Assembly: GCA_964016885.1 (NCBI GenBank)
Contig: OZ024743.1
Location: forward strand, 78,058,001-78,122,000
Origin: Eledone cirrhosa
Taxonomy: Eukaryota
Reading direction: 5' to 3'
Length of the DNA: 64,000 nucleotides
Below are positions 3,992-54,130 of the stretch, piece after piece. The notes under the pieces were generated by a model that made no database searches, was not told the origin of the DNA, and saw only the letters and a list, made by a program, of their open reading frames with translations. A program made the translations under genes and the position numbers. Every line of letters begins with the position of its first letter. The first letter of the stretch is position 1.

Positions 3992-6243
3992 ACTTTCTTT
4001 TTATTTGCCACCAGGGCATCAAAGAGTGGGACAAGTACAATGGGAGGAGTTTACATAAAAAGGCGTCCTCAATAAGGAGGAGGCAATAACAAAATATAAA
4101 AATAAAATAAAATATAACAAAAATAAATTTAATACCAAAATCCTCAATAGGGAGGAGGCGCCTTGGGGGGTCGCATACACCCCCGAAAAAAGTGTGCAAC
4201 CCTTCTCCTCAGGAGCACAGAGAGAGGGTGCTCCCTTGATCTTTCATCTTTCTCATCTACAGTCTAATGTAGAGTGAAGGCCCATTCACACGGGCCATTC
4301 TCGCCACTTTCACCCATATTTCATAGAAACGGCTGATCCTTCTTACGAAATGATATCGGAAGAAACGGATCAGTTATTGGCCAGAGAGAAAGGTGTCTGA
4401 CCTCAGTCCTTTCAGACGCGTCCACCATACAACCTCTTTCGCCATGGTTATTACGCACGGAAACACCGCCTCTCCTTCGTTTTTGAAGAGAGGGGGCGGC
4501 TTGATCGTTACAATAGACTTGGTGGTCAACCGGATCGGTCCCACCCTTGACAGCAGTTGTTCGACATAGCCCCACAGATCGGCAATGCCCGAGCAGTGTA
4601 CCAATGCGTGTGCAACGGTTTCCTCGTCGCACACGCATCTGGGACAGATATTTTTCGAGGGGTCCCTACCCGGGCGCCCGTGTCTGTAGAGCCTTTCTCG
4701 AACGGGCAGATCCCCTCGGTAGCACTGTCAGGCCAGGGATCTCTGGAAGTTATGTCCTACCGAACAGGTTGGCCACTTCGTTTTCCTCCATGCCTAGGGC
4801 TTCTCCGAGGGCGTCGTCGCACCTGCTAACCACCAGCCCTCTATAGAATGACGAGGTGGATTCTCCACTGACAGCCGGGTCCGCTTGCCAGAGAGCCGTG
4901 AGCGCCTGGGCACACTCGGTGTGCCAGGTGCCCAGTTTTCTCGGTCTTTGCTTGACCCAGGATTGCAGCTCGGTTAGCGAGACGAGTCTGGGAAAGGCTC
5001 GCCTCACAAACGGAGCCCACACCGGTTGACCGGTGAGGAATACCTGAAGGTGCCGTAGCCTTAATGCGTGTTTACGCATCATCAGCCACGGCATCCCCAG
5101 CCCTCCTTTCGAAGAGTGTTGACAGCAGATGGATCTCTTCACCATAGGAGCCCGCTTCTTCCAAAGGAATTGGAAGAGTGCGCGCTCCATTTTGGCGAGC
5201 GTTTCCCTTGGGCAAGGCACGACGGTCAGGCGGTAGTAGATGGCGGACGCTATATAAGTGTTCGCCACCTCCACCCTACCTTTAGGGACAGTTTGCACTC
5301 GGCCCACTTCTGGGTTAGTGCAAACACCCTGTTCGTTACCTCACACCAGTTCTTCTCCACCTGGAGGTCTGGTCCGAACCAGACTCCGAGCAACTTCACC
5401 GACGCCATCGGAGGGCATCGATTTTCCCCTCGACGTGCCGAGTTGCAGACCGATCGACTTGTTCAGGTTCAGCTTAGCCCCTGTAAACCTTTTGTACTCC
5501 TCCAGTAAGGTGCCGATCGCCCCAATTTCCGAGGCCGTCGACACCATTACTGTTACGTTATCGGCGTAGGCCGACACCGCTTTCAGCAATCCCGGTTCCA
5601 ACGGGATGCCCTGCAACAACTCCAACTTCCGCAGCAGTGGCTCTAGAGTCACTACATACAGAAGGGAGGAGAGAGGGCACCCTTGTCGTATGGACTGCGC
5701 GATTTCGAATGGCTCCGAGAGGTAGCCGTTCACCTTGACCTTAGAGCAGATGCGGCTGCTGTGCATGGCAGTGATCCAGGCCCTGAAAACGGCTCCGAAG
5801 TCTGCCGCTGCTAGCACCGCATCCAGGTAACCATGGTCGACCCTATCGAACGCCTTAGATTGATCCAAGTTGATCAGGGCCCCACCAAAGCCGGGTTAGT
5901 TCCCAACCATCTCTATGATGTATCGCATGAGGTGGAGGTTGTCGTAGATGGACCTGGACGGGATAGCCGATGTCTGCGCATCTCCCACCAGGTTGCTCAC
6001 GACAAGCGCCTTTGCTAGCACCTTGGCCAAAATCTGTAACTCTGTATTTAGCAGAGTTATGGGCCTGAAATTATTTATATCGTCCCCCTTGTTCTCGTCC
6101 TTCCTCACTAGCGTGACTACGCCCTTGGTCTCAGCACAGGGAATTCTCCCGTTCTGTTGCCAGTTGCAGTAGACCGCCTCGAGGAGATCGGGGAACAAGT
6201 CCGGCATAGCTAGATATAGTTCGTATGGAAGACCATCGAGACC
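3992..6243 (-). mobile_element. 5'-truncated, decayed Tx1/L1-clade LINE (RT + C-terminal CCHC)
   Basis: Fragments GLDGLPYELY, FRPITLLN, DQSKAFDRVDH, QGCPLS, AYADNV, GGLGMP and C..C.EETVAHALVHC are homologous to ORF 36418-39837. Candidate TSD CAAAGATA at 3984-91 and 6244-51. Confidence 0.9.
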
Positions 6244-6639
6244 CAAAGATAGGTAGACAATTAGGTTGGTAGACAGATAAATAGATATGTAGCAGACAGA
6301 CAGATAGATATATACATAGATATATACATAGTAAATAAATATATACATAGATAAATAGATAGGTATATATATAAATAGATCATTAGCTAGATAGACAGAT
6401 ACATAGATACATACATACAAATATACATATATAGATGGATATATATACATATATATATATATAGGAAAAGCGTCAGAACCCCGACGGCAGTGTTCAAGCC
6501 GTTTCGACAGCTATTTCGAAACGACTTGTACTCTGCCGTCGGGGTTCTGACTATTTTCTTATTACCCACTCTACTACCCAAAGTATCGAGTACTCTGGGC
6601 CGTTATGGTCCACCTGGTTCTTTACCACACTTCCTTCGT

Positions 6640-34182: not shown

Positions 34183-34700
34183 AGTATCGGTAGAGGGTCG
34201 GACGCCATGCTTTGCAGCAAAGAATTACGGCCCTTTATGATCTGAGTTCAAATCCCGCCAGGGTTAACTTTGCCTTTCATCCTTACGGGGTCGATAAAAT
34301 AAAGTACCAGTAATGCACTGGGATAATTGCTGGCCTTGTGCCAAAAGTAGAAATAATTATTATTAACAATGGCGATGGATTGGCAGTATCGGTAGAGGGT
34401 CGGACGCCATGCTTTGACTCGTAGAGTTACGGCCCTTGCCATTCTGAGTTCAAATCCCGCCGAGGTTAACTTTGCCTTTCATCCTTACGGGGTCGATAAA
34501 ATAAAGTACCAGTAATACACTGGGTTATTGCTGGATTTGTGCCAAAAGTACAAACAATTATTATTAACTAGTAAGAGCAGCAGTATTGGTAGAGCGTCTG
34601 ATACCCTGCTTTGTGGCATAGAGTTACGGCCCTTTATGCTTTGAGTTCAAATCCCACCAATATTAACCTTACCTTTCATCCTTACAGGGTCGATAAAAAG
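34183..34700 (+). mobile_element. Three head-to-tail Nin/Deu-domain-like SINEs
   Basis: Repeated unit separated by TTATTATTAAC; the third copy is 3'-truncated. Confidence 0.88.
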
Positions 34701-36104: not shown

Positions 36105-36143
<39 letters not shown>

Positions 36144-36417
36144 TATAATAATAATGATTTCTTTATTAACCACAAGGGTTTACATAAAGTAGACATTAAG
36201 GACAGTGCAGGACAATGCAGGACGGTACAAATGGGCATTTCTGCGTGTAAAAAAACAAAAACAGAGGATGTAACAAAAATAACAATGAAAATAACAATGA
36301 AAAATTCCCCAATAGGGGGGAGACTTCGGAGGGACATTTGTGGAGAAAGCCCAGTAAAAAGCCACAATGACCCTGACCACCAAGGCAAGTGCCCTCTCCC
36401 AGTTTTCCACCTTTAGT

Positions 36418-39400
36418 TTACAGATATATACTCAGAGTCGGCCCATTCACTCGGGCCATTCTTGCTTCTCTCACCCATCTTTCAACAAAATGCTGGGAAG
36501 AGAGCACTTCCTTCTCTACTCTGATTTTCCTTTTCAAATGAAATTTGAAAAAGTCAATCAGAGCATCACCGAAGAGGTAAGTGCTCGTCTTCAGCCCTTT
36601 CAAACGTGTCCACCATACTATCTCTTTCGCCATGGCCACCAGACAGATAAAAACTGCCTGCCCTTCCCGGCTAAAGGAGGAGGGCGGGGCAATCCTCACG
36701 ATAGACTCAGATGATAGCTGGATCCGTCCTAAACGCGACAGCAGGTGTTCGACATAAACCCACAAGTCAGCAATTTTCGGACACTGGACGAGTGCGTGCA
36801 GGACGCTTTCGTCGCCCTGCGCGCATCTCGGACATGCCCGGCTGACGGCACCTCCATGCCTGTAGAGTTTATCCCGAACTGGCAAGGCTCCTCGGTAGCA
36901 CTGCCAGGCCAGAGATTTCTGGAAGTTGTCCATAGGCCCTGGCCCGAAAGTTCTTCCGAAGAGATTGGCTAGTTGATTTTCGTCGACGCCTAGAGTTTCC
37001 CCAAGTACGTCGTCGCTCTTCCCCTCCACTAATCCTCTATAGAACGCCGAGGTGGAGTTTCCACCGATCACATTGCCCGATTGGTCGAGGGCTGTGAGCG
37101 CCTGAAGACATTCCAGTCTCCAGGCGCTCCCTCTCGGTCTTCGCTTGACCCAGGACTGCAGCTCCGTCAAGGAAACGAGCTGGGGAAAAACGCGTCTAGC
37201 AAACGGCGACCACACCTGATCACCGTCGAGGAAGAGGTGGAGATGTCGTAGCCTGAGCGCGTGCCTGCGCATCATCAGCCACGGCATGCCCAGCCCTCCA
37301 CGTAGCGGGTGTTGACAACAGATGGACCGCCTGACCATCGGAGCACGTCCCTTCCACAAAAAGCGAAAGAGCAAACGCTCCAGCGCAGTCAGGCGAGGCT
37401 TAGGACAAGGTACGACGGTTAGGCGGTAGCAGATGACAGACGCGATGTACGCGTTAGCCACCTCCGCTCGACCTTTCAGGGATAGCTTCCTCTCCGCCCA
37501 TTTCTGGGTGAGAGAAGCCACCCTGCTCGTCACCTCGTCCCAGTTTTTGTCCGTCTGGAGGTCCGGACCGAACCAGACCCCTAGCAATTTAACCGGTCCG
37601 TCCGTCCAGCGCCCGACGACGCTGTTGGACGGCATGGACCTGCCTCTCCAGGTGCCGAGCTGCAGGCCCACTGACTTTTCCTGGTTGATCATTGCTCCTG
37701 TCACCGCTTCGTATTCTCTTAGTGTAGTGCCGATCGCCTCGATGTGTTTGGCGTTCGACACCACTACGGTGACATCGTCCGCATATGCTGACACGGATCT
37801 TCCGCATCCTAGTTCGCGCGGGACTCCCCTCAACGTCTCCAGTTTGTGCAGTAATGGCTCGAGAGTCAATACGTACAAGAGGGACGAGAGGGGACATCCT
37901 TGGCGGACCGAGCGCATGATGTTGAACGGTTCCGACAGGTGACCGTTCACTCTCACCACAGAGCAGATGTCGCTGTGCATGGCAGCGATCCAGCCTCTGA
38001 AGACGGGCCCAAAGCCAGCCGCCCTCAGGACTGCCGCTAGGTAACGATGGTCGACCCTATCGAAAGCTTTCGACTGATCTAAATTGATCAAGGACCCACC
38101 CGTGCCAGGTTCCCTAGCTACCCTCTCTACGATGTATCGCATGAGGTGGAGGTTGTCGTGGATGGATCTGTTGGGAATGGCGCATGTCTGCGCCTCTCCC
38201 ACCAGACCACCAACGACAAGCGCCAACCTCTTTGCTAGCACCTTGGCCAAAATCTTAAACTCTGTGTTTAGCAGAGTTATGGGCCGGAAATTGTCTATGT
38301 TATCCCCCTTGTTCGGATCCTTTCTCAGCAGTGCCACCGCTCCTCGGCTAACAGAACTGGGAATTCTCCCGTTCTGTTGCCAGTTGCAGTAGACGTCCGC
38401 CAAGAGGCCTCCGAACAAGTCTGGCATCTGTACGTAAAGTTCATAGGGCAGACCATCCAAACCAGGCGATTTACCCCTTGTGCAGCCAGTCATTGCCTCC
38501 CGTACTTCAGCGGCTGTTATCGGCTTTTCGCAACACTTCGCCTCAGTGGCCGAGAGCCGCGGCAGTCCGTCGAGGTAGACACTAAAGTCCATCCCTCTAC
38601 CCGGCCCCCCGCTGCCCCCGAACAGCTGAGCGAAGTGTCGCTGAAAAGCTTCACACATTTGCCCGGGATCGAGTAGCATGCGCCCGTCGTGGTCCACCAA
38701 AGACCGGATCGTGGCTTTGTTGCCACGACGCGCCTCCGCCACTCGGGCCCATTGAACGGCTTTCGTCCCCTCGTGTCTGAGAGCACGCACCCTAGCTCTG
38801 ACAACGCAGCCTTCGTGCTTTGCATTGAAGAATTGGTCAAGGGCCAATTTCGCCGCAAGCACGTCGGTCGCAATGCCTTTGCTAAGCGCCTCGTCTAATT
38901 TTCTAACTAGTTCTCCCTCTGCTCTATTTTTCTCTATTGCTAAAGCCTTACTAAACCTAATCGATTCTATTCTAATCGCTCTTTTCAGAGCAAACCACCA
39001 CTTGTTGTTGACGATGGCCCCCGTCAACGCCCGCTTAACTAGTTCGCTAATCCGGTCTCTGTAGGCCTTGCGCGCTGGTAAGGACGCGTTTAGCTTCCAG
39101 TAGCCGGGTCCTCGTCTATGAAGCCTATCTAAGTCAAGCACACAGGTCACGAATTTGTGGTCCGTGTAGCTGACTATCTTGAATTGTGGACAGCCTATGC
39201 TAGACCTATCTATTTCCCTACAAAATACTCTATCTAGATATGATCTGGATGACCCTATGCGGTTTGTCCAAGTCCACATTGGCACATTCGGGAAATCCAA
39301 TCGGTACCTGTCAGACAGTTCAAAACGCCTGAGCAGGTTGGTGAGGCTCTTGCACCCTCCACCCCTATCCGCTAATCCCACACAGTCCCAGCGTGCATCT

Positions 39401-39837
39401 AAGATCCCGTTCCAGTCGCCCACTAACACTAAAGAGCGGGACGTTCCAAGAAAGGTCTCCAGACGCCGGAAGAAATCAGGCCGCCCTGCTCCTGTCGGGG
39501 CATAGACGGCCACTAGCCTGAAAGCTTGCCCGTCTCCGCTGGTCACGTCCAGCACCACCAGCTTACCCTCTGGGTCCAGGAAGATGGCCCGTATGGCGAG
39601 ATCCAAACCTCTCCGAAAAAGCACAGCAACTCCTCCACCCGATCCAGGACGGCTGGGAGATGCGTACACATCGTAGCCGCCGAAGATCGGTGCGAAGGCC
39701 CGTGCTTCGGAGATTCTGGTCTCGCTGATGGCCACTACATCTATGTTTAGTGACCTGAGGTCGTTGAGCAGGTGACCCTGCTTCCATGACGACCCCAAGC
39801 CACGCGCATTTATGCTGCCTATTCTGAGTGAGGTCAT
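36418..39837 (-). CDS. Tx1 ORF2: APE endonuclease, reverse transcriptase and CCHC finger, 1139 aa, intact
   Basis: SINARGL, ISETR, VYAP, GDWN, SYLDR, TDHK (APE); KSPGLDGL, FRPITLLN, DQSKAFDRV, QGCPLS, YADD (RT); CPRC..ESVLHALVQC. Confidence 0.97.
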   Translation of the reverse strand: MTSLRIGSINARGLGSSWKQGHLLNDLRSLNIDVVAISETRISEARAFAPIFGGYDVYASPSRPGSGGGVAVLFRRGLDLAIRAIFLDPEGKLVVLDVTSGDGQAFRLVAVYAPTGAGRPDFFRRLETFLGTSRSLVLVGDWNGILDARWDCVGLADRGGGCKSLTNLLRRFELSDRYRLDFPNVPMWTWTNRIGSSRSYLDRVFCREIDRSSIGCPQFKIVSYTDHKFVTCVLDLDRLHRRGPGYWKLNASLPARKAYRDRISELVKRALTGAIVNNKWWFALKRAIRIESIRFSKALAIEKNRAEGELVRKLDEALSKGIATDVLAAKLALDQFFNAKHEGCVVRARVRALRHEGTKAVQWARVAEARRGNKATIRSLVDHDGRMLLDPGQMCEAFQRHFAQLFGGSGGPGRGMDFSVYLDGLPRLSATEAKCCEKPITAAEVREAMTGCTRGKSPGLDGLPYELYVQMPDLFGGLLADVYCNWQQNGRIPSSVSRGAVALLRKDPNKGDNIDNFRPITLLNTEFKILAKVLAKRLALVVGGLVGEAQTCAIPNRSIHDNLHLMRYIVERVAREPGTGGSLINLDQSKAFDRVDHRYLAAVLRAAGFGPVFRGWIAAMHSDICSVVRVNGHLSEPFNIMRSVRQGCPLSSLLYVLTLEPLLHKLETLRGVPRELGCGRSVSAYADDVTVVVSNAKHIEAIGTTLREYEAVTGAMINQEKSVGLQLGTWRGRSMPSNSVVGRWTDGPVKLLGVWFGPDLQTDKNWDEVTSRVASLTQKWAERKLSLKGRAEVANAYIASVICYRLTVVPCPKPRLTALERLLFRFLWKGRAPMVRRSICCQHPLRGGLGMPWLMMRRHALRLRHLHLFLDGDQVWSPFARRVFPQLVSLTELQSWVKRRPRGSAWRLECLQALTALDQSGNVIGGNSTSAFYRGLVEGKSDDVLGETLGVDENQLANLFGRTFGPGPMDNFQKSLAWQCYRGALPVRDKLYRHGGAVSRACPRCAQGDESVLHALVQCPKIADLWVYVEHLLSRLGRIQLSSESIVRIAPPSSFSREGQAVFICLVAMAKEIVWWTRLKGLKTSTYLFGDALIDFFKFHLKRKIRVEKEVLSSQHFVERWVREARMARVNGPTLSIYL

Positions 39838-39871
39838 GTTTAAATAGAGTGGAAAAGATGGGAAAGACCAC

Positions 39872-41963
39872 TTACCGTACTTTTGGTAGAGGAGGGATGG
39901 TTTTTACATCCCTTTTCACTTGATCGTCTGGTGAAGGGACCGTTGAATCGTCCCTTCGGCTGGTCGTCGGCTCTTCTAAGAGAATGTCTGAATATACTCT
40001 TCGATTGATGGTTCCTCCTAGGTCCCTGAAATCACCAACTGCGTTGGGGAATTTCGTTTTAATGTTTGTGTATTGTTTCTGTGCTATTTTTAGCAGTCTT
40101 ATGTTAGTTGGCGTTTTGATTGGTGCTGGTATTATGTAGTCCTGTTGTGAAATGTCTGTGTTCAATTATGTAAGTCATTAGTTTCTTGTTGTGTGTGTTT
40201 ATTGCCGTGCATTTGTTTTTCTGGGGGTGGGGTGTGGTTCTGCTATTTTCTTGTCGTTGTTGCTGGGTGTGTGTGTTTTGTTGTTGTGTTTGCGATGTTG
40301 GTGCTTGTGGTGGTGGTGTTGAAGGTGTTGTTGGCGGTGGGGTTGTCGCCGGTGGTGATGGTGGTGCTGGTGTGGGTGGTGATGGTGTTGGTGGTGTTGC
40401 TGCTGTGGGTCTCTTTGCAGTAGACTTTACCCTTTTCTCATTTCTTTCCTCCCTTTTCAAAGGCGACGATGCGCTGCTTCTGCGTTTGTGCCTTCTTGCG
40501 ACCTTTTGCCATCCCTCTCCCACCTCACACTCCATGTCTGATTCTGTAAGGTCGGGGAGGGGTACCAGCTCCACTCTTTCACTTGTTGTTGTTGGTGATG
40601 TTTGCACTGGAGTCTCTGTTGCAGCTGCATTTGGTATTGCTGTTGTTGTTGTTAATATTTCCACTGCTGCTGCTGTCTTTGATTTCCGTGGAGTGGGTAT
40701 GGGTGCCACGGACCTATCGTTCCTGGTTGCCGCTTGTCCTGTTGCTGGTAGCCGTGGAGCCGGATTCAGAAGGAGGGGGGTTTTCTCCTTTCTCAGGGTC
40801 TTCTCGTTGCAGAAGGCCCTGAGGTGAGTCTTCGATCCACAGCGAAAGCATTTCGGGCGTTTGCCCTCAACACTTATGGGCAGTTGAGTGCCGTTATCGA
40901 AGTCTATCACATCCGGGATAGCTTCGATGCACTCCTGGTTGGTTTGGATTAGCATCTCAATGGAGGAGCCGACCCAATCTTCTCTTACTTTTTTCTGTAC
41001 TTGCAGTACAGTTGTTTTGTCCTCGATTCCGACGAGGACAGACGCGGCCAGCCAAGAAGGGGTCATTCCGGGGGGGACGTGGGTCAGTTTGACCCTCACA
41101 ATTTTTTGCCCGCAGTAGGAGGGCACCAACACCATTTCCTCGCTCCTTAGGGTCACTACTGATTGGGCCTTTGCCTCCTGGGGTGTGGCAAAAAGTACGT
41201 CTACGGTGGCGTATTTTTTGCCTCGGGTGATGTGCGTTTTCCTCTGCCACACAGACCCCAAGGCTTTTTGTATTTGGGCCTCTGTGGCTCTTTCCACCCT
41301 ACGGGATTTTGTACTTACTGTACGGTACGTGACCGTACAGTGCTCTTGGGTTTCGAAAAAATTTTTCGCTGCCTTGCAGATTGCTCGGTGTCCGTTCTTT
41401 GTCACCATCTTCTTCGCTTCCTCTAATTCCTCATTTGTTATGAGGATTGTTTCCAAGTTTTTCGCAATACCTGCAAATGAGATTGGTTTTTCTCTGCTGT
41501 TGTTGTTGTCGTCAGAGCTGCTGGTACTTTTGTTGCTGCAGGTACTACGACTACTGCCTCCGCCGCTGTTGCTGTGGTTGTTGTTGGTGTTGCTGCTGCT
41601 AATGCTGTTGTTGTTTATGCTGCTGGTGATGCTGTTGCGGCTGCTACTGTTGTTTTCATTGTCACTGTTGCTGTTGTTATTACGGCTGCTACTGCTATTA
41701 TTCCTGACGTCAGACGAATGAACTGGGTTTTCGTATTTCCCGCACACCTGTTTCGTCGCTGTCGTCGTCGTCGTGGAGAAACCTTGCACGCTTTGCACGA
41801 GACTTTTCTTTTCTTTCGTCGCTTGCGAAAGAGAAGGGAGGGAGAGAGACACATTTAAAGAAGGGAGGGAGAGAGACAATCTTCTCTCTGCTGTAGTGAT
41901 GATTGAGGAAGAAGAAGACGGAATGAGTGGGAGTGACGTATGAAATTTCTTTTTGGTAGCCAT
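39872..41963 (-). CDS. Tx1 ORF1 (gag-like, CCHC knuckle), one frameshift near 40160
   Basis: CFRCGSKTHLRAFC knuckle. ORF 39872-40165 aligns with the C-terminus of copy-2 ORF1 (KFP..GDFR..R.Y.DIL.EE), so it is the shifted continuation. Confidence 0.88.
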
Positions 41964-42200
41964 GTTTTTTTGTTTAAAATGAAATTTTGGGTACAAAACC
42001 CCAATAACTGGTTATTTAACCCCGAAGGGCCAAATAACGGACAGAAAGACCCCTCTCACGAGGAGGAGGGTGTCTTTATCAACAATTTGGTTCAAGTTTT
42101 AAACAATTTACAATTGTTTTAACGGTTAAAAATTACTATACCTTACAGAGCCGAGCCTCCGTCAACCATGGCATTCAATAATAATAATAATAATAATAAT

Positions 42201-42765
42201 ACAAAAGAATTGGTGGGAGCATCAACCACCTCCCATACTTGAAAAAGATCACATCTCAATCTTGTGGAACTTTAGCATCCAAACAGACCGAAAAATAGAT
42301 GCAAACAGACCTGATATAATATTGAAGGACTTTCAAAAGAGGGTATGCCTGCTAATTGATATGTCTGTTCCAATAGACAAGAATGTATCTATAAAAACAT
42401 TTGAAAAATTGAGCAAGTATAAGGACCTGGAGATAGAAATTGGAAAAATGTGGAAATTGAGAACTAAAACAATACCAGTGGTTGTAGGCGCTCTGGGAAT
42501 GATACCTAAGGGGTCTAATGACTACTTATCGCAAATCCCAGGAAACCCGCGTATAGGAGAAATACAAAAGATAGTACTAATGGGAACTGCCCATATACTA
42601 AGGAAGATTCTGTCAATATAAGTACATCACAAGTCTAAACACTAAAGATGCATGTGTGAATATGTATGTTCTTTCTTGAACATGGCGGACCTTGTTGTCT
42701 CTTGAGGTCACTGGTTGTGACTTGGTGATAACTCGTATGAACATAAAGCAAGATAAATGCAACTG
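42201..42765 (+). mobile_element. 3' fragment of a Dong/R4-clade LINE (restriction-like endonuclease)
   Basis: WWEHQP..ILWNFSIQTDRKIDANRPDIIL..LIDMSVP..EKLSKYKDLEIEI.KMW..IPVVVGALG (PD..D RLE), with (TAA)n on both sides. Confidence 0.88.
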
Positions 42766-42784
42766 TAATAATAATAATAATAAT

Positions 42785-45700
42785 GCTTTCTTTATTAACC
42801 CCAAGGGTTTACACAAAGTAGACATTAAGAACAGTACAGGACAATACAGGACGGTACAAAAGGGCATTTCTGCGTGTAAAAACACAAAAAAACAGAGGAT
42901 GTAATAATAGAACAATGAAAAAATTCCCCAATAGGGGGCAGACTTCCGAGGGATATTCGTGGAGAAAGCCCATTAAAAAGCCACAGTGATCCTGACCACC
43001 AGGGCAAGTGCCCTCTCCCAGTTTTCCACCTTTAATTTACAGACACATACTCAGAGTAGGACCGTTCGCTCGGGCCATTCTTGCCTCTCTCACCCATCTT
43101 TCAACAAAAAGCTGGGAAGAGAGCACTTCCCTCTCTACCCTGATTTTCCTTTTCAAATTAAATTTGAAAAAGTTAATCAGGGCATCACCGAAGAGGTAAG
43201 TGCTCGTCTTCAGCCCTTTCAAACGTGTCCACCATACTATCTCTTTCGCCATGGCCACCAGACAGATAAAAACTGCCTGCCCTTCTCGGCTAAAGGAAGA
43301 GGGCGGGGCAATCCTCACGATGGACTCAGCTGATAGCTGGATCCGTTCTACACGCGACGGCAGGTGTTCGACATAAACCCACAAGTCAGCAATGCTCGGA
43401 CACTGGACGAGTGCGTGCAGGACGTTTTCGTCGCCCTGCACGCATCTCGGACATGCCCGGCTGACTCCATGCCTGTAGAGTTTATCCCGAACTGGCAAAG
43501 CTCCTCGGTAGCACTGCCAGCCCAGGGATTTCTGGAAGTTGTCCATAGGCCCCGGCCCGAAAGTTATTCTGAAGAGATTGGCTAGTTGATTTTCGTCGAC
43601 GCCTAGAGTTTCCCCAAGTACGTCATCGCTCTTCCCCCCCACTAATCCTCTATAGAACGTCAGGGTGGAGTTTCCACCGATCACATTGCCCGATTGGTCG
43701 AGGGCTGTGAGCGCCTGAAGACATTCCAGTCTCGAAGCGCTCCCTCTCGGTCTTCGCTTGACCCAGGACTGCAGCTCCGTCAAAGAGACGAGCTGGGGAA
43801 AGACATGTGTAGCAAACGGCGACCACACCTGATCACCGTCGAGGAAGAGGTGGAGATGTCGTAGCCTGAGCGCGTGTCTGCGCATCATCAGCCACGACAT
43901 GCCCAGCCCTCCACGTAGCGGGTGTTGATAGCAGATGGACTGCCTGACCATCGGAGCGCGTCCCTTCCACAAAAAGCGAAAGAGCAAACGCTCCAGTGCT
44001 GTCAGGCGGGGCTTAGAACAAGGTCGACGGTCAGGCGGTAGTATATGACGGGCGCGATGTACGCGTTAGCCACCTCCGCTCGACCTTTCAGGGATAGCTT
44101 CCTCTCAGCCCATTTCTGTGTGAGAGAAGCCACCCTGCTCGTCACCTCGTCCCAGTTTTTGTCCGTCTGGAGATCCAGACCGAATCAGACCCCTAGCAAT
44201 TTAACCGGTCCGTCCGTCCAGCGCCCGACGACGCTGTTGGACGGCATGGACCTGCCTCTCCAGGTGCCGAGCTGCAGGCCCACTGACTTTTCCTGCTTGA
44301 TCATTGCTCCTGTCACCGCTTCGTATTCTCTTAGTGTAATGCCGATCGCCTCGATGTGTTTGGCGTTCGACACCACTACGGTGACATCGTCCGCATATGC
44401 TGACACGGATCTTCCGCATCCTAGTTCGCGCGGGACTCCCTCAACATCTCCAGTTTGTGCAGTAATGGCTCGAGAGTCAATACGTACAAGTGGGACGAGA
44501 GGGGACATCCTTGGCGGACCGAGCGCATGATGTTGAACGGTTCCGAAAGGTGACCGTTCACTCTCACCACAGAGCAGATGTTGCTGTGCATGGCAGCGAT
44601 CCAGCCTCTGAAGACGGGCCCAAAGCCAGCCGCCCTCAGGACTGCCGCCAGGTAACGATGGTCGACCCTATCGAAAGCTTTCGACTGATATAAATTGATC
44701 ATGGACCCACCCGTGCCAGGTTCTCTAGCTACCCTCTCTACGATGTATCGCATGAGGTGGAGGTTGTCGTGGATGGATCTGTCGGGAATGGCGCATGTCT
44801 GCGCCTCTCCCACCAGACCACCAACGACAAGCGCAAACCTCTTTGCTAGCACCTTGGCCAAAATTTTGAACTCTGTGTTTAGCAGAGTTATGGGCCTAAA
44901 ATTATCTGTTATCCCCCTTGTTCGGATCCTTTCTCAGCAGCGCCACAGCTCCTCGGATCACAGAGCTGTGAATTCTCCCGTTCTGTTGCCAGTTGTAGTA
45001 GACGTCCGCCAAGAGGCCTCCGAAACAGGTCTGGCATCTGTACGTAAAGTTCATAGAGCAGACCATCCAAATCAGGCGATTTACCCATTGTGCAGCCAGT
45101 CATTGCCTCCCGGACTTCAGCGGCTGTTATCGGCTTTTCGCAACATTCCGCCTTAGTGACCGAGAGCCGCGGCAGTCCATCGAGGGAGACACTAAAGTCC
45201 ATCCCTCGATCCGGCCCGCCGCTGCCCCCGAACAGCTGTGCGAATTGTCGCTGAAAACCTTCACACATTTGCCCGGGATCGAGTAGCATGCGCCCGTCAT
45301 GGTCCACCAAAGGCCGGATCGTGGCTTTGTTGCCACGACGCGCCTCCGCCACCCGGGCCCATTGAACGGCTTTCGTCCCCTCGTGTCTGAGAGCACGCAC
45401 CCTAGCTCTGACAACGCAGCCTTCGTGCTTTGCATTGAAGAATTGGTCAAGGGCCAATTTCGCCGCAAGTACGTCGGTCGCGATGCCTTTGCTAAGCGTC
45501 TCGTCTAATTTTCGAACTAGTTCTCCCTCTGCTCTATTTTTCTCTATTGCTAAAGCCTTACTAAACCTTATGGACTCTATTCTAATCGCTCTTTTCAGAA
45601 CAAACCACCACTTGTTGTTGACGATAGCCCCGTCAACGCCCGCTTAAATAGTTCGCTAATCCGGTCTCTGTAGGCCTTGCGCGCTGGTAAGGACGCGTTT

Positions 45701-48293
45701 AGCTTCCAGTAGCCGGGTCCTCGTCTATGAAGCCTATCTAAGTCAAGCACACAGATCACGAATTTGTGGTCCGTGTAGCTGACTATCTTGAATTGTGGAC
45801 AGCCTATGCTAGACCTATCTATTTCCCTACAATATACTCTATGTAGATATGATCTGGATGACCCTGTGCGATTTGTCGATGGCCCGTATGGCGAGAAAGA
45901 TGGCCCATATGGCGAGATCCAAACCTCTCCGAAAAAGCACAGCAACTCCTCCCCTCGATCCAGGATGGCTGGGAGATGCGAACACATCGTAGCCACCGAA
46001 GATCGGTGCGAAGGCCCGTGCTTCGGAGATTCTGGTCTCGCTGATGGCCACTACATCTATGTTTAGTGACCTGAGGTCGTTGAGCAGGTGGCCCTGCTTC
46101 CATGACGACCCCAAGCCACGCGCATTTATGCTGCCTATTCTGAGTGAGGTCATGTTGAAATGGAGTGGAAAAGATGGGAAAGACCACTTACTTTACTTCT
46201 CGTAGAGGAAGGATGGTTTGTCCATCCTTTTCACTGCTTGTGGCCTCCTCCGGAAGGATGTCCTTATAAATCCTGCTGGAGAATGCTTGTCGGAAATCTC
46301 CGATGTCTTTGGGGAATTTTTGTTTTAGTGTGGTGTACGTTTTCTGTGTGATGCGAGTGATTTGTATGTGTGGAGGTGGTGTGAACTTTTGGGTTGTTGT
46401 GTAGTCTTCTTCTGTGACGCTGGTGTTGTGTTGGATGTAGTGTAATAATTGGTTGTTGTTCAAATTTAATGCTGTGTAGTGTGTATCGTTTTGGTTGTTT
46501 TGTTTTGTTTGCGTTTGTTGTGGGTTTGTTTCTGTTTCGCTTTTTGGTGACTTTTGTGGTGTTGGTGATGGTGGTGTTGTGGTTAATGATGGTGATGGTG
46601 TTGGTGTTTGATGTGATGGGGTTGGTGATACTGGTGTGGATGGTGGCATATCTGTCCTAACTTTTTTGTTTGATAGTTTATTTGTTTCCCTCTGTATTTT
46701 GTTTTTGGAGGGCGAAGGAAGAGGATTTTTTCTTTTTTGGTTTCTTTTTCTTTTTTTCTTTTTTCCTGATACCGTTTCCCACTCCTCGTCGTCACAATCT
46801 GTCTCCAGTTGCGATAGGTCGGGGAGTGGAAAATCCTCCACAGGCGTTGGTTTTGGTTGTGGTGCGGTGGATAGTGTAGGCGCTGGTGCTAGTTCTGGCC
46901 CGTTGGGTGGTGGTGGTGTTGGTTTTGCTACTGTTGCTGGGGTTGTTGCTGTTACAGTTGCTTCTGTTGTTGCTGCTACAGTTGTTGCTGCCATTTCTGC
47001 TGCTGGTGGTGTTGATGGTTGAGTCACTGGGGTGGGTAATAGAGGTGGCCTCAACCTTTTAGCCTGAGGGCAGAAAGCCCTTAGGTGGGTTCCTTCACCA
47101 CAAACGACACAACTAGGCCTTCTGTCCTCGACGATTACGGTGAGGTGGCTGCCGTCAGTGAGGTCTATTACCTCTGAGATCACCTCAATGCATTTTTGGT
47201 CCGCTTGGATCAGGAGCTCCATCCCAGATCCGGACCAGTTCTCCTGCTTTTCTTTCGCTATTTCGATTATCTTGGTGTTGTCTTTGATGCCGGCGAGGGC
47301 GGCAGCCATTAGCCAGGGAATTTCGATGGCCGGTGGAACGTGGGTCACCCTGATCTTCACGAGTCTTTGGCCACAATAGCTTGGGACGAGTGTGAAGTCG
47401 TCACTTCTTAATGGGGCCATAGAGTGTTCTCTGGCCTCCTGTGGTGTTTCAAAGAATATGTCCACGGTTCCATATTTCTTCCCACGTCTGATGTGGGTTT
47501 TTTTTGCCCACACATGTCCCAAAGCTTTTTGGATTTGGGACTCGGATGCCCGTTCCACTCGGCGCGATTTTATGTTAATCGTACGATAAGACACGGTGCA
47601 TAGGCGCCGATGCTCCATTTTATTAGGGGGGGGGACTGACCCTGTACCCATCTTTCTTTACCATTCTTTTGGCTTCTTCTAATTCCGCCTGAGTTACCTG
47701 GAATGCTTCGCACCTTTTTGCTACTCTGGCAAAAGACAGGCTGGTTTTCTTAATTTCATTGTTGCTGTTGTTGTTATCGTTATTTTTGTTATTGTTAATT
47801 TTAGTTTCAGTTGTGGTGGTGGTGGCGTCAGTGGTGTTCGGTGTGGAAGAGTTCATTTTGGGTGGATTCATTTCGATATCACGAGATAATTTACTTTTTT
47901 CTTTTGTTTCTGTTGTTGCTGTGGTGGTGGTGGGAGTGGCGGCTTCAACACCTGCAGTCATTGGTAATGGCGGAAAATGAATGTCTGCCTGAGACAAATT
48001 TAAAATATTGCTACTGCTTATATTTTTAGTGTTGGCAAACGTAGTAATATTTACAATGGTGGTGTCGGTGTGAGGTGTTAGTTTGTGAGGAAGGTGTGAC
48101 ACTGAGTCGTCTATGATTTTTTCAAAGAAAAATATTTTGTTTGATAATTATAAAAGTTTAAATTTTGGGCTCAAGGCCCCAATCTTTTTGAGTGTCCTTT
48201 TCAGATAACAATGTATGTGCACTTATATACAGTTAACAATAAAATTTTCCATAAATGACAATTTTAAACAACTGAAAATAACAAACCTTTGCC
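42785..48293 (-). mobile_element. Near full-length Tx1 LINE (copy 2), ORF2 disrupted
   Basis: ORF2 and 3'UTR are near-identical to copy 1, with frameshifts and a 312-bp deletion; (AAT)n at 42766-84 and 48294-326. Confidence 0.95.
46188..48102 (-). pseudogene. Tx1 copy-2 ORF1, frameshift at the G-run ~47626-34
   Basis: SFARVAK..ELEEAKRMVKKDG, then CTVSYRT..CVVCGEGTHLRAFC; homologous to copy-1 ORF1. Confidence 0.85.
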
Positions 48294-48326
48294 AATAATA
48301 ATAATAATAATAATAATAGTAATAAT

Positions 48327-51190
48327 TTCATTTATTAGCCACAAGGGCCGCCATGTAGAGGACAATACAAAGACAGGAACAGTGGGGGTTTAAAATAAGG
48401 TTGAGTAAAAGTACACAATGGCAAGACTAATTTAACAATGAAGATATGAAAAATATAAAATATAAAATAAACTATGCATAAATATAACAAAATAAATTCC
48501 CTGATAGGAGGTGGACGACCCTGGGGTGACTCAGGTACCCCACCAATCCTGAACCACCCTGCGCTTCTAGGGCAGCCCTCTCCTCAAGTTAGCTAGCCTA
48601 TAGGCGCATGGTCAGAGTAGGCCCATTCACATGGGCCATTCTTGCCACATTCATCTACCTTTTAGCAAATGTACTGGGGGGGGGGGCAGCACTTCTTTCT
48701 CCGCCCTCACCTTCCTTTCCAGATGAAACTTGAAGAAGTTGATGAGGGATTGGCCGAAGAGAAAAGTGTCTGTCTTCAGTCCTTTTAATCTGGTCCACCA
48801 TATAACCTCTTTCGCAACGGCCACCAGACAGAGGAAAATTTCCTGCTCTTCCTGACCTAAGGAAGGCGGCGGGTCGATCTTCACTATGGACTCGGCCGAT
48901 AGCCGGATTCTTACTACACGCGACAGTAGCTGTTCGACATAACTACACAAGTCAGTAATGCACGGACTTTGGACAAGTGCGTACAGAACGGTTTCGTCGT
49001 TCTGTGCGCATCTTGGGCAGGTCCGTCTGACAGAACTTCCGTGCCTATAGAGTTTATCCCGAACCGGCAGTGCTCCTCGGTAGAACTGCCAAGCGAGGAA
49101 TTTCTGGAAATTGTCCATCGTCCCCGGCTCGAAAGTCCTCCGGTACAGACTGGTCAGTTCGACTTCGTCGAGGACCTAAGCTTCTCCGAGTGCGTCATCG
49201 CACTTGCCCACCACTAATCCTTTATAGAACTCGAGAGTGGAAGTTTCACTGATCGCATTGTCCGCTTGATCGAGGGCAGTGAGTGCCTGGCAACATCCCA
49301 GGTGCCAGTCACCCTGTCTCGGTCTCTTCTTGACCCAGGACTGCAGCTCAGTCAAAGAAACGAGCTGCGGAAAGGTCCATTTGATAAACGGCGACCACAC
49401 CTGTTCACCGTTTAGGCAGAATATCTGGAGATGTCGTAGCCTCAACGCATGTCTGCGTATCATTAGCCATGGCATGCCCAGCCCTCCGCGTAGAGGGTGC
49501 TGGCAGCAGATGGACCGCCTCACCAACGGAACTTGTCCCCTCCACAAGAATTTGAAGAGGAGCCGTTCCAACTTGACAAGGTGCGGACGGGGCGAAGCAC
49601 GACGGTCAGGCGGTAGTAGATGACGGACGCGATGTACGCAATCGCCACCTCCCCGTGACCTTTCAGTGATAGCTTCCTCCCAGCCCATTTTTGGGTGAGA
49701 CTGGCTACTCTGCTCGTTACCTCGTCCCAATTCTTTTCCACCTGGAGGTTGGTCCGAACCAAACCCCGAGCAACTTTACCGGTCCGTCTGTCCAGCGCCC
49801 CACGACGCTGTTGGACGGCATAGGCTTGCCTCTCCAGGTTCCGAGCTGCAAGCAAACCGACTTTTCCGGGCTAAGTTTGGCTCCTGTCAACCTTTCATAT
49901 TCTTTCAATAAGGTACCGACCACCTCGATTTCTGAGGTGTTCGACACCATCACTGTGATGTCGTCCGCATAAGCCGATGCCGCCTTTCCACGTCCCGGTT
50001 CGAGCGGGATGCCCTGCAACAGCTCCAGCTTCCGCAGTAAAGGCTCGAGAGTCAATATGTACAGAAGGAAAGAGAGAGGGCACCTTTGACGGACCGATCG
50101 GGAGAGCCGAAATGGTTCCGATAGGTGGCCATTAACCTTGACCACCGACCGTGTGTCGCTGTGCATTGCAGCGATCCAGCTTCTGAAGACAGGGCTGAAG
50201 CCAGCCGCTTTGAGGACAAACTCCAGATACTGGTGGTCGACCCTATCGAATGCTTTCGATTGATCTAAATTGATCAGTGCCCCACCGAAGCCAGGTTTAC
50301 ACCCTACCCTCTCTATGATTTATCGCATGAGGTGAAGATTGTCGTGTGTGGACCTTGATGGGATTGCGCAAGTTTGCGCCTCCCCAACCAAATCTTCAAC
50401 GACAAGCGCCAATCTCTTTGCTAACACCTTCGTCAAAATCTTAAACTCTGTGTTGAGCAGAGTTATAGGCCTGAAGTTGTCTAATGTATCCCTCTTGTTC
50501 TCTTCTTTCCTTATCAGCGTCACCACTGCCCTGCTCACAGAACTGGGAATACTCCCATTCTGCTGCCAGTTGCAGTAGAGGGCTTCGAGGAGATCGGAGA
50601 ACAAGTCTTGCATATTTACGTAAAGCCCGTAGGGCAGGCCATCCAAACCGGATGAGTTGCGGCTCATTCAGCCGACAAGGGCGTCCTGAATCTCGGCCTT
50701 TTCTATTTTTCTCTAACGCTAGTTCTTTGCTGAACTCTATCGAAGTTACTCTAATCTCTCTTTTGAGAGCCCCCCACCATCTGTTGTTGATGATCCCCCC
50801 TGTCAACTTTTGCTTAACTAAATTGTTGACTCGGTCCCTGTAAGCCTTACGTGCCGGAAATGACATGTTCAGCTTCCAGTAATCCGGTCCCAACCTACGC
50901 GTTTTATCTAGGTCGACCATACAGATCACAAATTTGTGATCTGATTAGGCGACCGTTTTAAAAAGTGGGCAGCCTACACTATTTCTATCTATTTTCCTAA
51001 TGAAGATCCTGTCTATATACAATCTAGATGACACCATGCGGTTGGTTCATGTCCATACTGGCGCATTGGGGAAATCTAGTCGATACCTGTCAGACAGTTG
51101 GAACTGGCTGATTAGGTGCTTGAGGCTTTTGCACCCCCCGCTCCTATCAGCTACTCCCACACAATCCCAGCGTGCGTCTAAGATGCCGTT
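48327..51190 (-). mobile_element. 5'-truncated Tx1 LINE (copy 3, different subfamily) with an internal deletion near 50680
   Basis: RT and CCHC fragments (AYADDI, CPRCAQNDETV); bounded by AAT repeats at 48294-326 and 51191-203. Confidence 0.92.
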
Positions 51191-51600
51191 AATAATAATA
51201 ATTGTTTCTACTTTTGGCACAAGGCCAACAATTATCCCAGTGTATTACTGGTACTTTATTTTATCAACCCCGTAAGGATGAAAGGCAAAGTTAACCTCGG
51301 AGGGATTTGAACTCAGTCCATAAAGGGCCGTAACTCTTTGCGGCAAAGCATGGCGTCCGACCTTCTACCGATACTGCCAATCAACCACCCATACAACTAC
51401 ATAATAATAATAATAATAATTGTTTCTACTTTTTGGCATAAGGCCAGCAATTACCCAGTACATTACTGGTACTTTATTTTATCGACCCCGTAAGGATGAA
51501 AGGCAAAGTTGACCTCAGCGGGATTTGAACTCAGAATGGAAAGGGCCGTAACTGTATGCATCAAAGCTTGACGTCCGACCCTCTACCGATACTGCCAATC
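51191..51600 (-). mobile_element. Two tandem Nin/Deu-domain-like SINEs
   Basis: Reverse complements of the 34.2-kb SINEs, each with an (ATT)n tail. Confidence 0.88.
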
Positions 51601-51604
51601 ACTG

Positions 51605-54130
51605 TTTTACGTCCATTCTTCCACGTTAGCATGGGTTAGATGGGTTGTCCTGTTGTGGGCAATGCCAGGTCAGGTGACTATGTCTTGCTCATACAGAACT
51701 GATTTGGGCTTGATTTCTACAGCTGGATGCCCTTCCTAACATCAACCTCATTTACAGTGGGTTCTGGGTGCTTTTTAACATGGCACCTACACAACCACTT
51801 TACAGTGTGGGCTGAGTGATTTTTTGTCATGACACCTGGGGCCATATTGTCTATAAGCTTCAGCTTCAGCTTGTACCCATGAGAAGAAGGGTCTTCTGTA
51901 TTACTGCATAACGCCAGCGGTCTCAGTCTGTGTCATTGCCTTTGAGAGGTGCAATTGGGCAAGATCAGCTTTTATCACCTCATCCCAGGTCTACTTTGGT
52001 CTCCCTACTCCAAGACATCCATCGACTTTTAGTGCTCTGCACCTTTTTATGCAGCTGTCATCCTTCATACGCATCACATATCCATACCAACATAATCTCC
52101 TCTCCTGCACACAACATTTGATTCCTCTGATGCCTAGTCTCTCTCTTAATTCATTTATGCTTTGCCATTCGCGTATATTACACATTCGCATATATTACAC
52201 ATCCATCGGAGCATGCAATCTTCATTTCTTTCTAATCTACACAAGTCTTGTGCACAACACCCAGGTCTCACTACCATGCGACATTGCTTTCATATGCACG
52301 AATCATACAGTCTGCTTTTCATTTTGAGGGAAAACCCTTTTGCAGCTTGCAGTGGTAGTAACTCCCTGAACTTGCTCCATCCCGTTCTTAATCGGGCTAC
52401 TGTACTTTCAGAACACCCACCTTCACTGCTAATTCGCTCACTTAGGTAGCAGAAGCTGTCTACTGTTTCTACCAAGCCCTCTCAGAATTTGGTAGTGCTT
52501 GTTTCTTGTGATCATTTACTGCTTACTGTCCCAGTGCAGCTGTTACATGTAAAGCGTATATTCTTAGCTAAACTTCCTTACATTCCACTACACATCTTGT
52601 GTACCCATTGTTTACATATGGGGCAAAGGATGAAATTTCTACCTACACCTTTCCTACATACTCAGCAATGCCATTTCCCTGAGGGGATCTGGGTTCTGTT
52701 TTCTCTTCTACTTACTAGGACCTTAGTCTTTGTCAGGTTGACTTTGTGACCCCGTCTTTCTAGGCCCTGCTTCCATGTTTGGAATTTCTTCTCTAGTTCC
52801 ACTATAGATTCAGCGATAAGTGTAAGATCATCCATGTACAGACATTCCCATGGGCATCCGGTCTTAAACTCCTCTTTTATAGCCTGCAATATGATAATAA
52901 ACAGGAGAGGGCTAAGATCAGAGCCCTGGTGGACACCAACCTGTATGATAAATTCCTCGCTATAGTCATTGTTAACCCTAACTTTGCTGACTGCTCCCCT
53001 ATACATGGCTTGTACACCATTCACAAGCCATTCATCTACTCCTAGTTTTCTAAAAGCCTACTAGATTATAGCACTGGGCACTCTGTCGAAGGCTTTTTCC
53101 AGATCGACAAATACCAGCTAGAGCGACTTACCTTTAGCTAGGTACTTTTCCTGTAACTGCTTCACAAGGAAGAGTGCATCAGTGGTGCTTTTTCCTGGCA
53201 CAAACTTAAACTGCATCTGATCTAGATTTACCCTGTCCCCAATCAGCTGTGCTATAACTCTTTCTGTTATTTTCATGACCTGGTCCATCAGCTTTATACC
53301 TCTATAGTTTCCTCTATTTAGTGCATCTCCTTTACCCTTGTAGCAGTTGACAATGTTGCTGTTGTGCCAATCATTTGTAATGATGCTTTCTAGTATTAGT
53401 TAACAATATGTATAGTTATGGTGTGACCTGCCGACCCAGATGCTTTCAGCATCTCGGCAGCTATACTCGATGGACCAGTTGCTTTCCCAGTCATCATATC
53501 CTTAATTGCCTTACTTACTACACTGCTGCTGACTTGTATTGCTTGGGCCTCTATGGGGTCCACTTGGAGTAGCGTCCCTTTCTCCCATGAATTCTCCTCA
53601 TTTAGTAAACTTTCATAATGGCTCTTCCACACAGCTTTCTTCTCGACACTTGTGAGAAAAAGCTCACCTTTATCACCCTGGACATACTTCTCACCAATGA
53701 CATCACAATTTTCTCTAACACACTGCCTCACAATCTTGAACAGTTTGTTAAGGCAGTAGTATGCATTAAGGACACATAAAACCTATCCTTATGCTCGTCT
53801 GGCAACCCAGATTGGGGTACGTAAGCTGATATAAATGTAGCAATTGTTTTATTCAAGACTAGTCTGAATTTAATGATTCTTGCGTTTACCCAGTTCACTG
53901 AGATTATCTTATCCACGCATTTGTCAGCAAATAAGAAACCTACACCACCCAACTCATTGTCATTTCCCACCCAGAAAAATTTGTAGCACTGATTTTTGCC
54001 TACAAGGACTCTAGCAGACTCTCCTCTCCCTCTAGTCTCTTGCACACAACATACACCAATTTCCATTTGCTCTAACTTCTCTATGATTTCTCTTGCTCTT
54101 CCTTTCATTGTGCTCACGTTGATGGTGCCA
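51605..54130 (-). mobile_element. Decayed RTE-clade LINE with internal deletion
   Basis: CCVQETR, GGVGFL, SAYVPQ (APE); GVHQGSDLSPLLF, YMDDL (RT); the 3' tail is shared with the SINE-like repeats. Confidence 0.88.

Follow-up and report, generated by a model that had tools for sequence, protein, structure and literature searches.

Several APE-type elements of the Tx1 clade are known to insert into microsatellites: Kibi into (TC)n, Koshi into (TTC)n and crocodilian families into (TTCC)n or (TTTC)n, as described in the covered parts of two papers (PMC4494074, PMC3812793), the second of which calls microsatellite recognition by APE-type elements not well understood. Dong, of the R4 clade, is reported as specific for TAA repeats in parts of PMC3812793 and PMC4640811. 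A crocodilian SINE, SINEU, has been tied to the Tx1 family Tx1-Mar by a common target (PMC4494074, in part), and human L1 nicks at TTTT/AA and ends in a poly(A) tail (PMC1950540, in part). Active L1-Tx1 and Dong families feature in recent annotations of octopus repeats, with no target analysis given in the parts covered. Our literature search returned no ATT- or ATCT-specific Tx1 family, either in the covered parts of PMC13282606, PMC8967140, PMC4758252 and PMC3747384 or in those of PMC4494074; a precedent could exist in Repbase, in Kojima and Fujiwara 2004, in the Tx1L paper or in Fig. 3 and the supplements of PMC4494074.

The family described here, from the octopus Eledone cirrhosa, resembles Kibi, Koshi and the crocodilian Tx1 families in consisting of APE-type non-LTR elements that lie within a simple repeat. 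It differs from them in its A/T-rich targets, (ATT)n and, in a sister family, (ATCT)n, whereas the Kibi/Koshi lineage uses pyrimidine repeats ((TC)n, (TTC)n or related). Its mollusc host, its thousands of young copies, the evidence for a 5′ repeat leader and the presence of a SINE partner also set it apart. Tx1 families specific to TC, TTC, TTCC and TTTC are already known; within the literature covered, ATT and ATCT appear to be new targets.

The stack of elements in the window

The window, that is, the whole stretch of DNA analysed, is 64,000 nucleotides of contig OZ024743.1; genome-wide counts were made in the 3.0-Gb host assembly. The features of the window are as follows.

3996..6249, minus strand: copy 4, truncated member of the (ATCT)n sister family
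36105..36155, no strand: (AAT)17 tract, 3′ junction of copy 1
36156..42176, minus strand: copy 1, full-length 6,021-bp APE-type LINE of subfamily 1, 99.8% identical to its nearest relatives
36168..36180, minus strand: 3′ UTR hairpin of copy 1, 4-bp stem and CTTGT loop, directly 5′ of AATAAA
36418..39837, minus strand: ORF2 of copy 1, open, with endonuclease, reverse transcriptase and zf-RVT/CCHC
40104..41963, minus strand: ORF1 of copy 1, one CCHC knuckle, frame lost near the end
42177..42200, no strand: (AAT)8, 5′ junction of copy 1 (probably leader plus target) and of the Dong fragment
42201..42765, plus strand: putative Dong/R4-like element, 5′-truncated, restriction-like endonuclease end, 100% identical to a relative
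42766..42784, no strand: (TAA)6, common to the 3′ ends of Dong and copy 2, which lie tail to tail
42785..48293, minus strand: copy 2, subfamily 2, with frameshifts, the endonuclease partly deleted and the first ~36 nt of its own subfamily absent
48294..48326, no strand: imperfect (AAT)11, 3′ tract of copy 3 and 5′ junction of copy 2
48327..51190, minus strand: copy 3, older ATT subfamily, truncated within the endonuclease, 77% identical to copy 1
51191..51202, no strand: (AAT)4, tail of the SINE at the 5′ junction of copy 3
51203..51601, minus strand: two tandem SINE copies with an A/B-box-like head and a GGC-CTTGT-GCC 3′ hairpin
51401-51420: (AAT)6 between the two tandem SINE copies

The order, polarity and coordinates of this stack (Tx1 copies 1-3, Dong/R4, SINE and (AAT)n spacers), first given in an earlier note, hold on recheck, and the ORF2 of copy 1 is intact as claimed there, being open with endonuclease (EN), reverse transcriptase (RT) and zf-RVT domains. 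The three Tx1-like copies do share the minus polarity, but they represent three subfamilies; tandem duplication as the origin of the window stack was rejected on this ground. Copy 1 starts with GAATGCC after (ATT)8 and ends in AATAAAGAAATC, followed by the ATT tract. Identity to the nearest relative, among the relatives fetched, rises from the SINE (92.7%) through copy 3 (94.5%), copy 2 (95.3%) and copy 1 (99.8%) to Dong (100%), which fits serial insertion into the 3′ tract of the preceding element, with Dong and copy 1 in either order. Since every 5′ tract within the window is also the tail of a neighbour, the window alone is no proof of targeting, and it is the genome-wide counts that provide it. 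The fragment at 42201-42765 appears to be Dong/R4-like by resemblance of its motifs, not by a tree. The tandem SINE copies gave no ARAGORN or Rfam match. Fragments of unrelated RT-encoding elements (29-40% amino-acid identity to ORF2) also lie at 52725-53333 and 11432-11566.

The LINE family, its age and its affinities

The family combines ORF1 and an ORF2 with N-terminal APE, RT and C-terminal CCHC with target-site duplications and 5′ truncation, as is characteristic of APE-type LINEs of the L1 group. Its ORF1 contains a CCHC knuckle, a feature of the Tx1 clade. In phmmer, ORF2 scores 321-350 bits against four proteins with automatic YTX2/TX1 names and 181-182 bits against human L1 ORF2p, so the family likely belongs to the Tx1 clade, as judged against these named proteins and not against reference Tx1, Kibi or Koshi sequences. 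The closest named protein match is from Argonauta hians (74%). ESM Atlas returned only unnamed RVT_1/Exo_endo_phos clusters, and a look-up of clusters yielded no clade names. The octopod clade has as its sister a large group of 1,150-aa relatives (P0006-P0076) that are 38-50% identical.

The ORF1 of copy 1 goes out of frame after 618 of 713 codons, the reference being the 713-codon ORF1 of other copies. Copy 2 has an ORF2 94.6% identical to that of copy 1, together with another 5′ UTR and a different ORF1 (55% at the amino-acid level). Subfamilies 1 and 2 have ORF2 and 3′ UTR in common and differ in 5′ UTR and ORF1 (42785-48293; L100-L159), a pattern that resembles promoter replacement in L1.

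The family is young and counts thousands of copies. The exact 26-mer at the start of subfamily 1 occurs 1,604 times in the genome and the exact 24-mer of the 3′ end 7,811 times, and the best 40 genomic matches to the last 541 bp are each 100% identical. Thirty-nine of the best matches were fetched and 31 scored full-length; among these 31, the mean pairwise difference in ORF2 is 0.45% and both ORFs are open in 22. Short tandem repeats of the element 3′ end (395-bp and about 130-bp units) at L150 and L378 are possibly template jumps, and an identical SINE-to-LINE breakpoint at two loci (L132, L148) is possibly an amplified chimeric element. Older ATT-subfamily copies at L244, L245, L249, L184, L167 and L174 occupy one ATT stretch of the same repeated host sequence.

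AATAAA sits just 5′ of the ATT tract and is preceded in all subfamilies by a hairpin with a 4-bp stem and a 5-nt loop. Its two outer pairs show compensating changes, counted in related sequences and not as independent events. Poly(A) tails are near-absent, with an A-run at 1 of 255 distinct 3′ ends. Human L1 is similar in having a short motif at the nick, similar duplication sizes and an EN hairpin of equal length, whereas the present family has an ATT and not an A tail, a conserved 3′ hairpin and about half of its sampled copies full-length.

ATT repeats at the junctions

Perfect, in-phase (ATT)4 stands directly upstream of 1,550 of the 1,604 exact full-length 5′ ends genome-wide (96.6%), against a background of 0.004% of 225,200 flank positions. 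The earlier note's observation that ATT repeats lie at 5′ junctions, and are not only 3′ tails, is thus confirmed. It had also named a majority of 5′ junctions outside ATT as the result that would speak against its reading; the majority lies inside, both in these full-length copies and in a positional sample (69 of 92 scored copies). This sample consists of the first 100 3′ ends on contig 1, chosen without regard to flanks, and has ATT at the 5′ junction in 52/52 full-length and 17/40 truncated copies (background 1.7%). The script alone scored 71 of the 100, with ATT in 31/31 full-length and 14/40 truncated copies. By hand, L139 was reassigned to full-length, L119 and L149 were rescored as ATT, and L104, L107, L147 and L153 were removed as chimeras with other subfamilies; 18 copies with a listed exact start, six further copies and L039 were added, and four copies (three local duplicates and one other) were left unscored. 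In PMC4494074 a family counts as repeat-specific when more than 20% of flanks are of one repeat type, a level far exceeded here by the 5′ junctions of full-length (96.6%) and truncated (42%) copies.

Twenty-three of the 40 truncated copies have no ATT directly at the 5′ junction, or 21 if duplications starting in ATT are allowed, which raises those with ATT to 19. These ATT-less copies speak against strict targeting. About 11 of 32 full-ended copies carry internal deletions, which makes later deletion a plausible, though unproven, origin of the ATT-less truncated junctions. (TTC)n adjoins two of the 40 (L093, L095). These two and L253 are truncated, with (TTC)n at the 5′ junction and ATT at the 3′ one, possibly from insertion at the border of a compound repeat with target loss.

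Truncated copies and the ATT-tailed SINE show target duplications of 8-20 nt that mostly begin with ATTAT, which argues that the repeat is a real target and not only a tail. In five truncated copies with interrupted tracts (L016, L018, L086, L117, L242), unique bases form part of the 11-19-nt duplications, which begin in ATT or GTT. At L018, L242 and L372, GTT of the target directly follows the element end, so no addition of a tail is needed. A short ATTAT motif appears to be the minimal target. We are highly confident that targeting of ATT repeats is real. The claim that the family targets (ATT)n is supported; it needs qualifying for the 23 ATT-less truncated copies and for the part of the 5′ ATT that is likely RNA-derived. 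A C before the ATT run (18/39 vs 25/103) was considered as a tag from an upstream copy, and this was rejected since SINE targets show the C too.

An RNA origin for part of the 5′ tract is suggested by its form. Full-length junctions are in phase although duplication lengths vary, and ATT is purer on the 5′ side (96.6%) than on the 3′ side (2,609/3,336, 78%), in overlapping but non-identical copy sets of which the 3′ pattern also captures older and truncated copies. Sixteen full-length copies have an interrupted 3′ tract; scored by eye, the interruption is absent from the 5′ side in 11, recurs there together with (ATT)6-8 in five and abuts the first base in none. L371 and L372 each carry an identical, unique 18-nt duplication plus (ATT)8; they differ at 85 of 5,970 sites and are therefore likely separate insertions. 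The 5′ ATT run is mostly 6-8 units long (61 counted, two loci twice). Full-length copies thus likely carry an RNA-derived (ATT)6-8 leader, and the RNA would start inside the upstream ATT tract.

Stacking is general in the genome: 43 of 78 distinct LINE 3′ ends adjoin another element, namely a Dong 3′ end (24), a family copy (11) or a SINE (8), and 35 adjoin other DNA. TAA adjoins Dong copies at all 20 of 20 3′ ends and, of the 7 5′ junctions that could be resolved within 1.5 kb, at 5. Dong is like the LINE family in its microsatellite, two Dong-like families occupying the tracts of the LINE family, and differs from it in having a single ORF and the opposite strand. Dong elements also encode a restriction-like endonuclease. 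One of the two Dong/R4-like families is very young (100% identical copies), and both often lie tail to tail with Tx1-like elements (L320-L339; L071, L080, L091). Adjacent array copies are identical over 1.3 kb in 4 of 7 cases, whereas none of 66 unlinked pairs is; duplication at the DNA level therefore accounts for some arrays, and some same-subfamily arrays likely grew by unequal exchange. The proposal that each insertion regenerates the target and builds arrays fits the ATT on both sides and the general stacking, and does not account for every array.

The SINE ends in GGC-CTTGT-GCC plus ATT, with the same loop as the ATT family. The loop matches in 133 of 146 ends, in a search whose pattern itself required a similar hairpin. 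Thirty positional copies were fetched, of which 28 were scorable, and 18 of the 28 have duplications of at least 8 nt (control 24/756). These are 8-20 nt long, with one of 37 in a pure tract; 17 of the 18 start with ATT, positions 2-4 are TTA in all 18, and the preceding base is C or T in 16. With both a common 3′ end and a common target signature, the SINE was likely mobilised by the ATT LINE family. Long ATT tracts make up only 2 of the 18 SINE sites; if the SINE uses the LINE machinery, that machinery alone would therefore not confer strict specificity for microsatellites. This suggests that a short Y/ATTAT site may be all the machinery requires, with the LINE's own RNA, which ends in repeats, making the choice more exact. 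As with Tx1-Mar and SINEU, a SINE is linked to a Tx1 element through the target, and tandem insertions occur around a duplicated target; SINEU has poly(A), and SINEU-1 has no LINE of the same 3′ terminus, whereas the present SINE has the 3′ hairpin loop and ATT end in common with its LINE. SINEs with this loop and ATTAT-starting duplications lie at 51203-51601 and 34183-34698 of the window and at L290-L319, and a second SINE type, in the flanks of L062, L168 and L290, ends still closer to the LINE end.

The sister family and the proposed mechanism of targeting

Copy 4 is a member of a family in which (ATCT)n, and sometimes (AT)n, follows the 3′ end; (AT)n was seen at 4 of 66 3′ ends of the most divergent bin. 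There are 388 exact occurrences of the family's start in the genome. Among the first 30 of these starts, at least two ATCT units lie within 25 nt upstream in 28 (background 0.24%) and within 4 nt in 17, and ATT lies upstream in none. The ATT and ATCT families are 66-76% identical in RT and about 60% in the EN domain, where about 40% of residues differ, two of them in the EN hairpin, and they differ in the last encoded bases as well. Automated 5′-end calls of families 3 and 4 over-extended into neighbours and were used only for picking references, the junctions being set by eye.

The RT tree was built from 26 rows with a midpoint root; L1, Kibi, Koshi, Keno and Dewa are not among them, and the Dong row, which remained unaligned, was left out. 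Read as unrooted, it places the octopod clade apart from vertebrate TX1-named proteins. All octopod elements form one clade (100/99), in which the ATCT family groups with ATT subfamily 3 (98/96). The nesting of the ATCT family among ATT subfamilies points to a target switch, from ATT to ATCT, inside the octopod clade.

ATT at both junctions, fixed orientation and stacks that become younger in one direction are observed. They fit an outline that we consider probable, in which a young two-ORF LINE inserts strand-specifically in ATT by target-primed reverse transcription and later elements reuse the tract. The ORF2 protein would bind the 3′ hairpin and nick the AAT strand at AAT/R; the nicked strand would pair with AUU repeats that the RNA has gained by read-through into its own flank, and reverse transcription would begin at the fixed element end. 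A second nick would follow 10-20 nt downstream. With an RNA start about 6-8 repeats upstream, the cDNA would end in (AAT)6-8 and could join the target in phase, with ATT then present on both sides and the same tract open to later elements. Selectivity would likely combine a modest endonuclease preference with RNA-DNA pairing, which may account for a large share of the targeting; the SINE likely borrows the LINE machinery, and Dong uses the same tracts from the other strand. Repeat targeting of this kind offers a cause for the stacking of LINE, Dong and SINE at single microsatellites in a 3-Gb genome.

It is possible, at somewhat below even chances, that the endonuclease does all of the targeting: the APE domain would read (AAT)n, the junction ATT would be target duplication throughout, and the switch to ATCT would come from protein changes. 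In vitro, nicking by Tx1L-EN is almost confined to its own site (PMC1950540, in part); about 40% of residues differ between the endonucleases of the ATT and ATCT families, as given above; and the GTT-starting duplications at L018, L242 and L372 show an element end that is fixed despite a mismatch at the first base. This reading leaves unexplained the in-phase ATT/GAATG junction in 96.6% of copies while duplications vary from 8 to 20 nt, and also the combination of a unique duplication with (ATT)8 at L371 and L372. The EN hairpin, which probes the minor groove (PMC1950540, in part), also speaks against it: the loop aligns without gaps to human L1-EN, is shorter than the grafted Tx1L loop, and has just the two residue differences between the families.

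A slightly less probable proposal places the choice in the RNA. The EN would only prefer an AT/R step, found in AAT, AGAT and AT repeats, RNA ends copied from the flank would choose the site, and a copy landing in a new repeat would found a new specificity. In its favour, the cut strand reads AT/R at the inferred nicks of both families, and the ATCT family, itself nested within the ATT families, has copies in (AT)n too. Read-through RNA that pairs with the target lifts R2Ol insertion from 12% to 96-98% (PMC6530143, in part). R2Ol and other users of co-transcribed target would be alike in that target-matching RNA ends guide priming, and R2Ol differs in its rDNA target and its class of endonuclease. 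Against it stand other differences between the families, which affect 40% of EN residues and the final bases encoded. Among 114 young 3′ ends of the ATT family, not one fell into the (AT)n or ATCT class, an outcome compatible with both models. Our tentative suggestion along these lines is that LINEs may inherit their target from their flanks, with RNA ends that are microsatellite copies, an EN that is a near-generic AT/R nickase and a switch by each new landing. If so, the insertion site of APE-type retrotransposons could be reprogrammed through the RNA ends, and the LINEs would be likely drivers of the abundant octopus SINE. Two close families on different repeats, with many intact young copies and a SINE reporter, would allow a swap experiment that separates endonuclease from RNA pairing.

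It is very improbable that there is no targeting, with ATT being the element's own tail and leader, insertion occurring anywhere and stacks arising by duplication or by survival in repeat-rich DNA: 5′ ATT is missing from about half of the truncated copies and likely derives in part from RNA, and some arrays are duplicates, but truncated copies, which have no leader, still show 5′ ATT far above background, no full-length copy has a unique duplication wholly outside ATT runs (0 of 31 scored, others checked by eye), 24 of 78 3′ ends adjoin a Dong tail, and the window stack, with its three subfamilies, is not a duplication.

A third specificity, for (AAT)n on the sense strand, was considered from a single copy, L329, with no long relative above 78%, and is not claimed. 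At L329:250-700 lies a divergent member whose downstream (AAT)n, read on the sense strand, has the reverse orientation; no close relative of it was found. Stacking on one another also occurs among several ATCT subfamilies (L190-L239, L260-L289).
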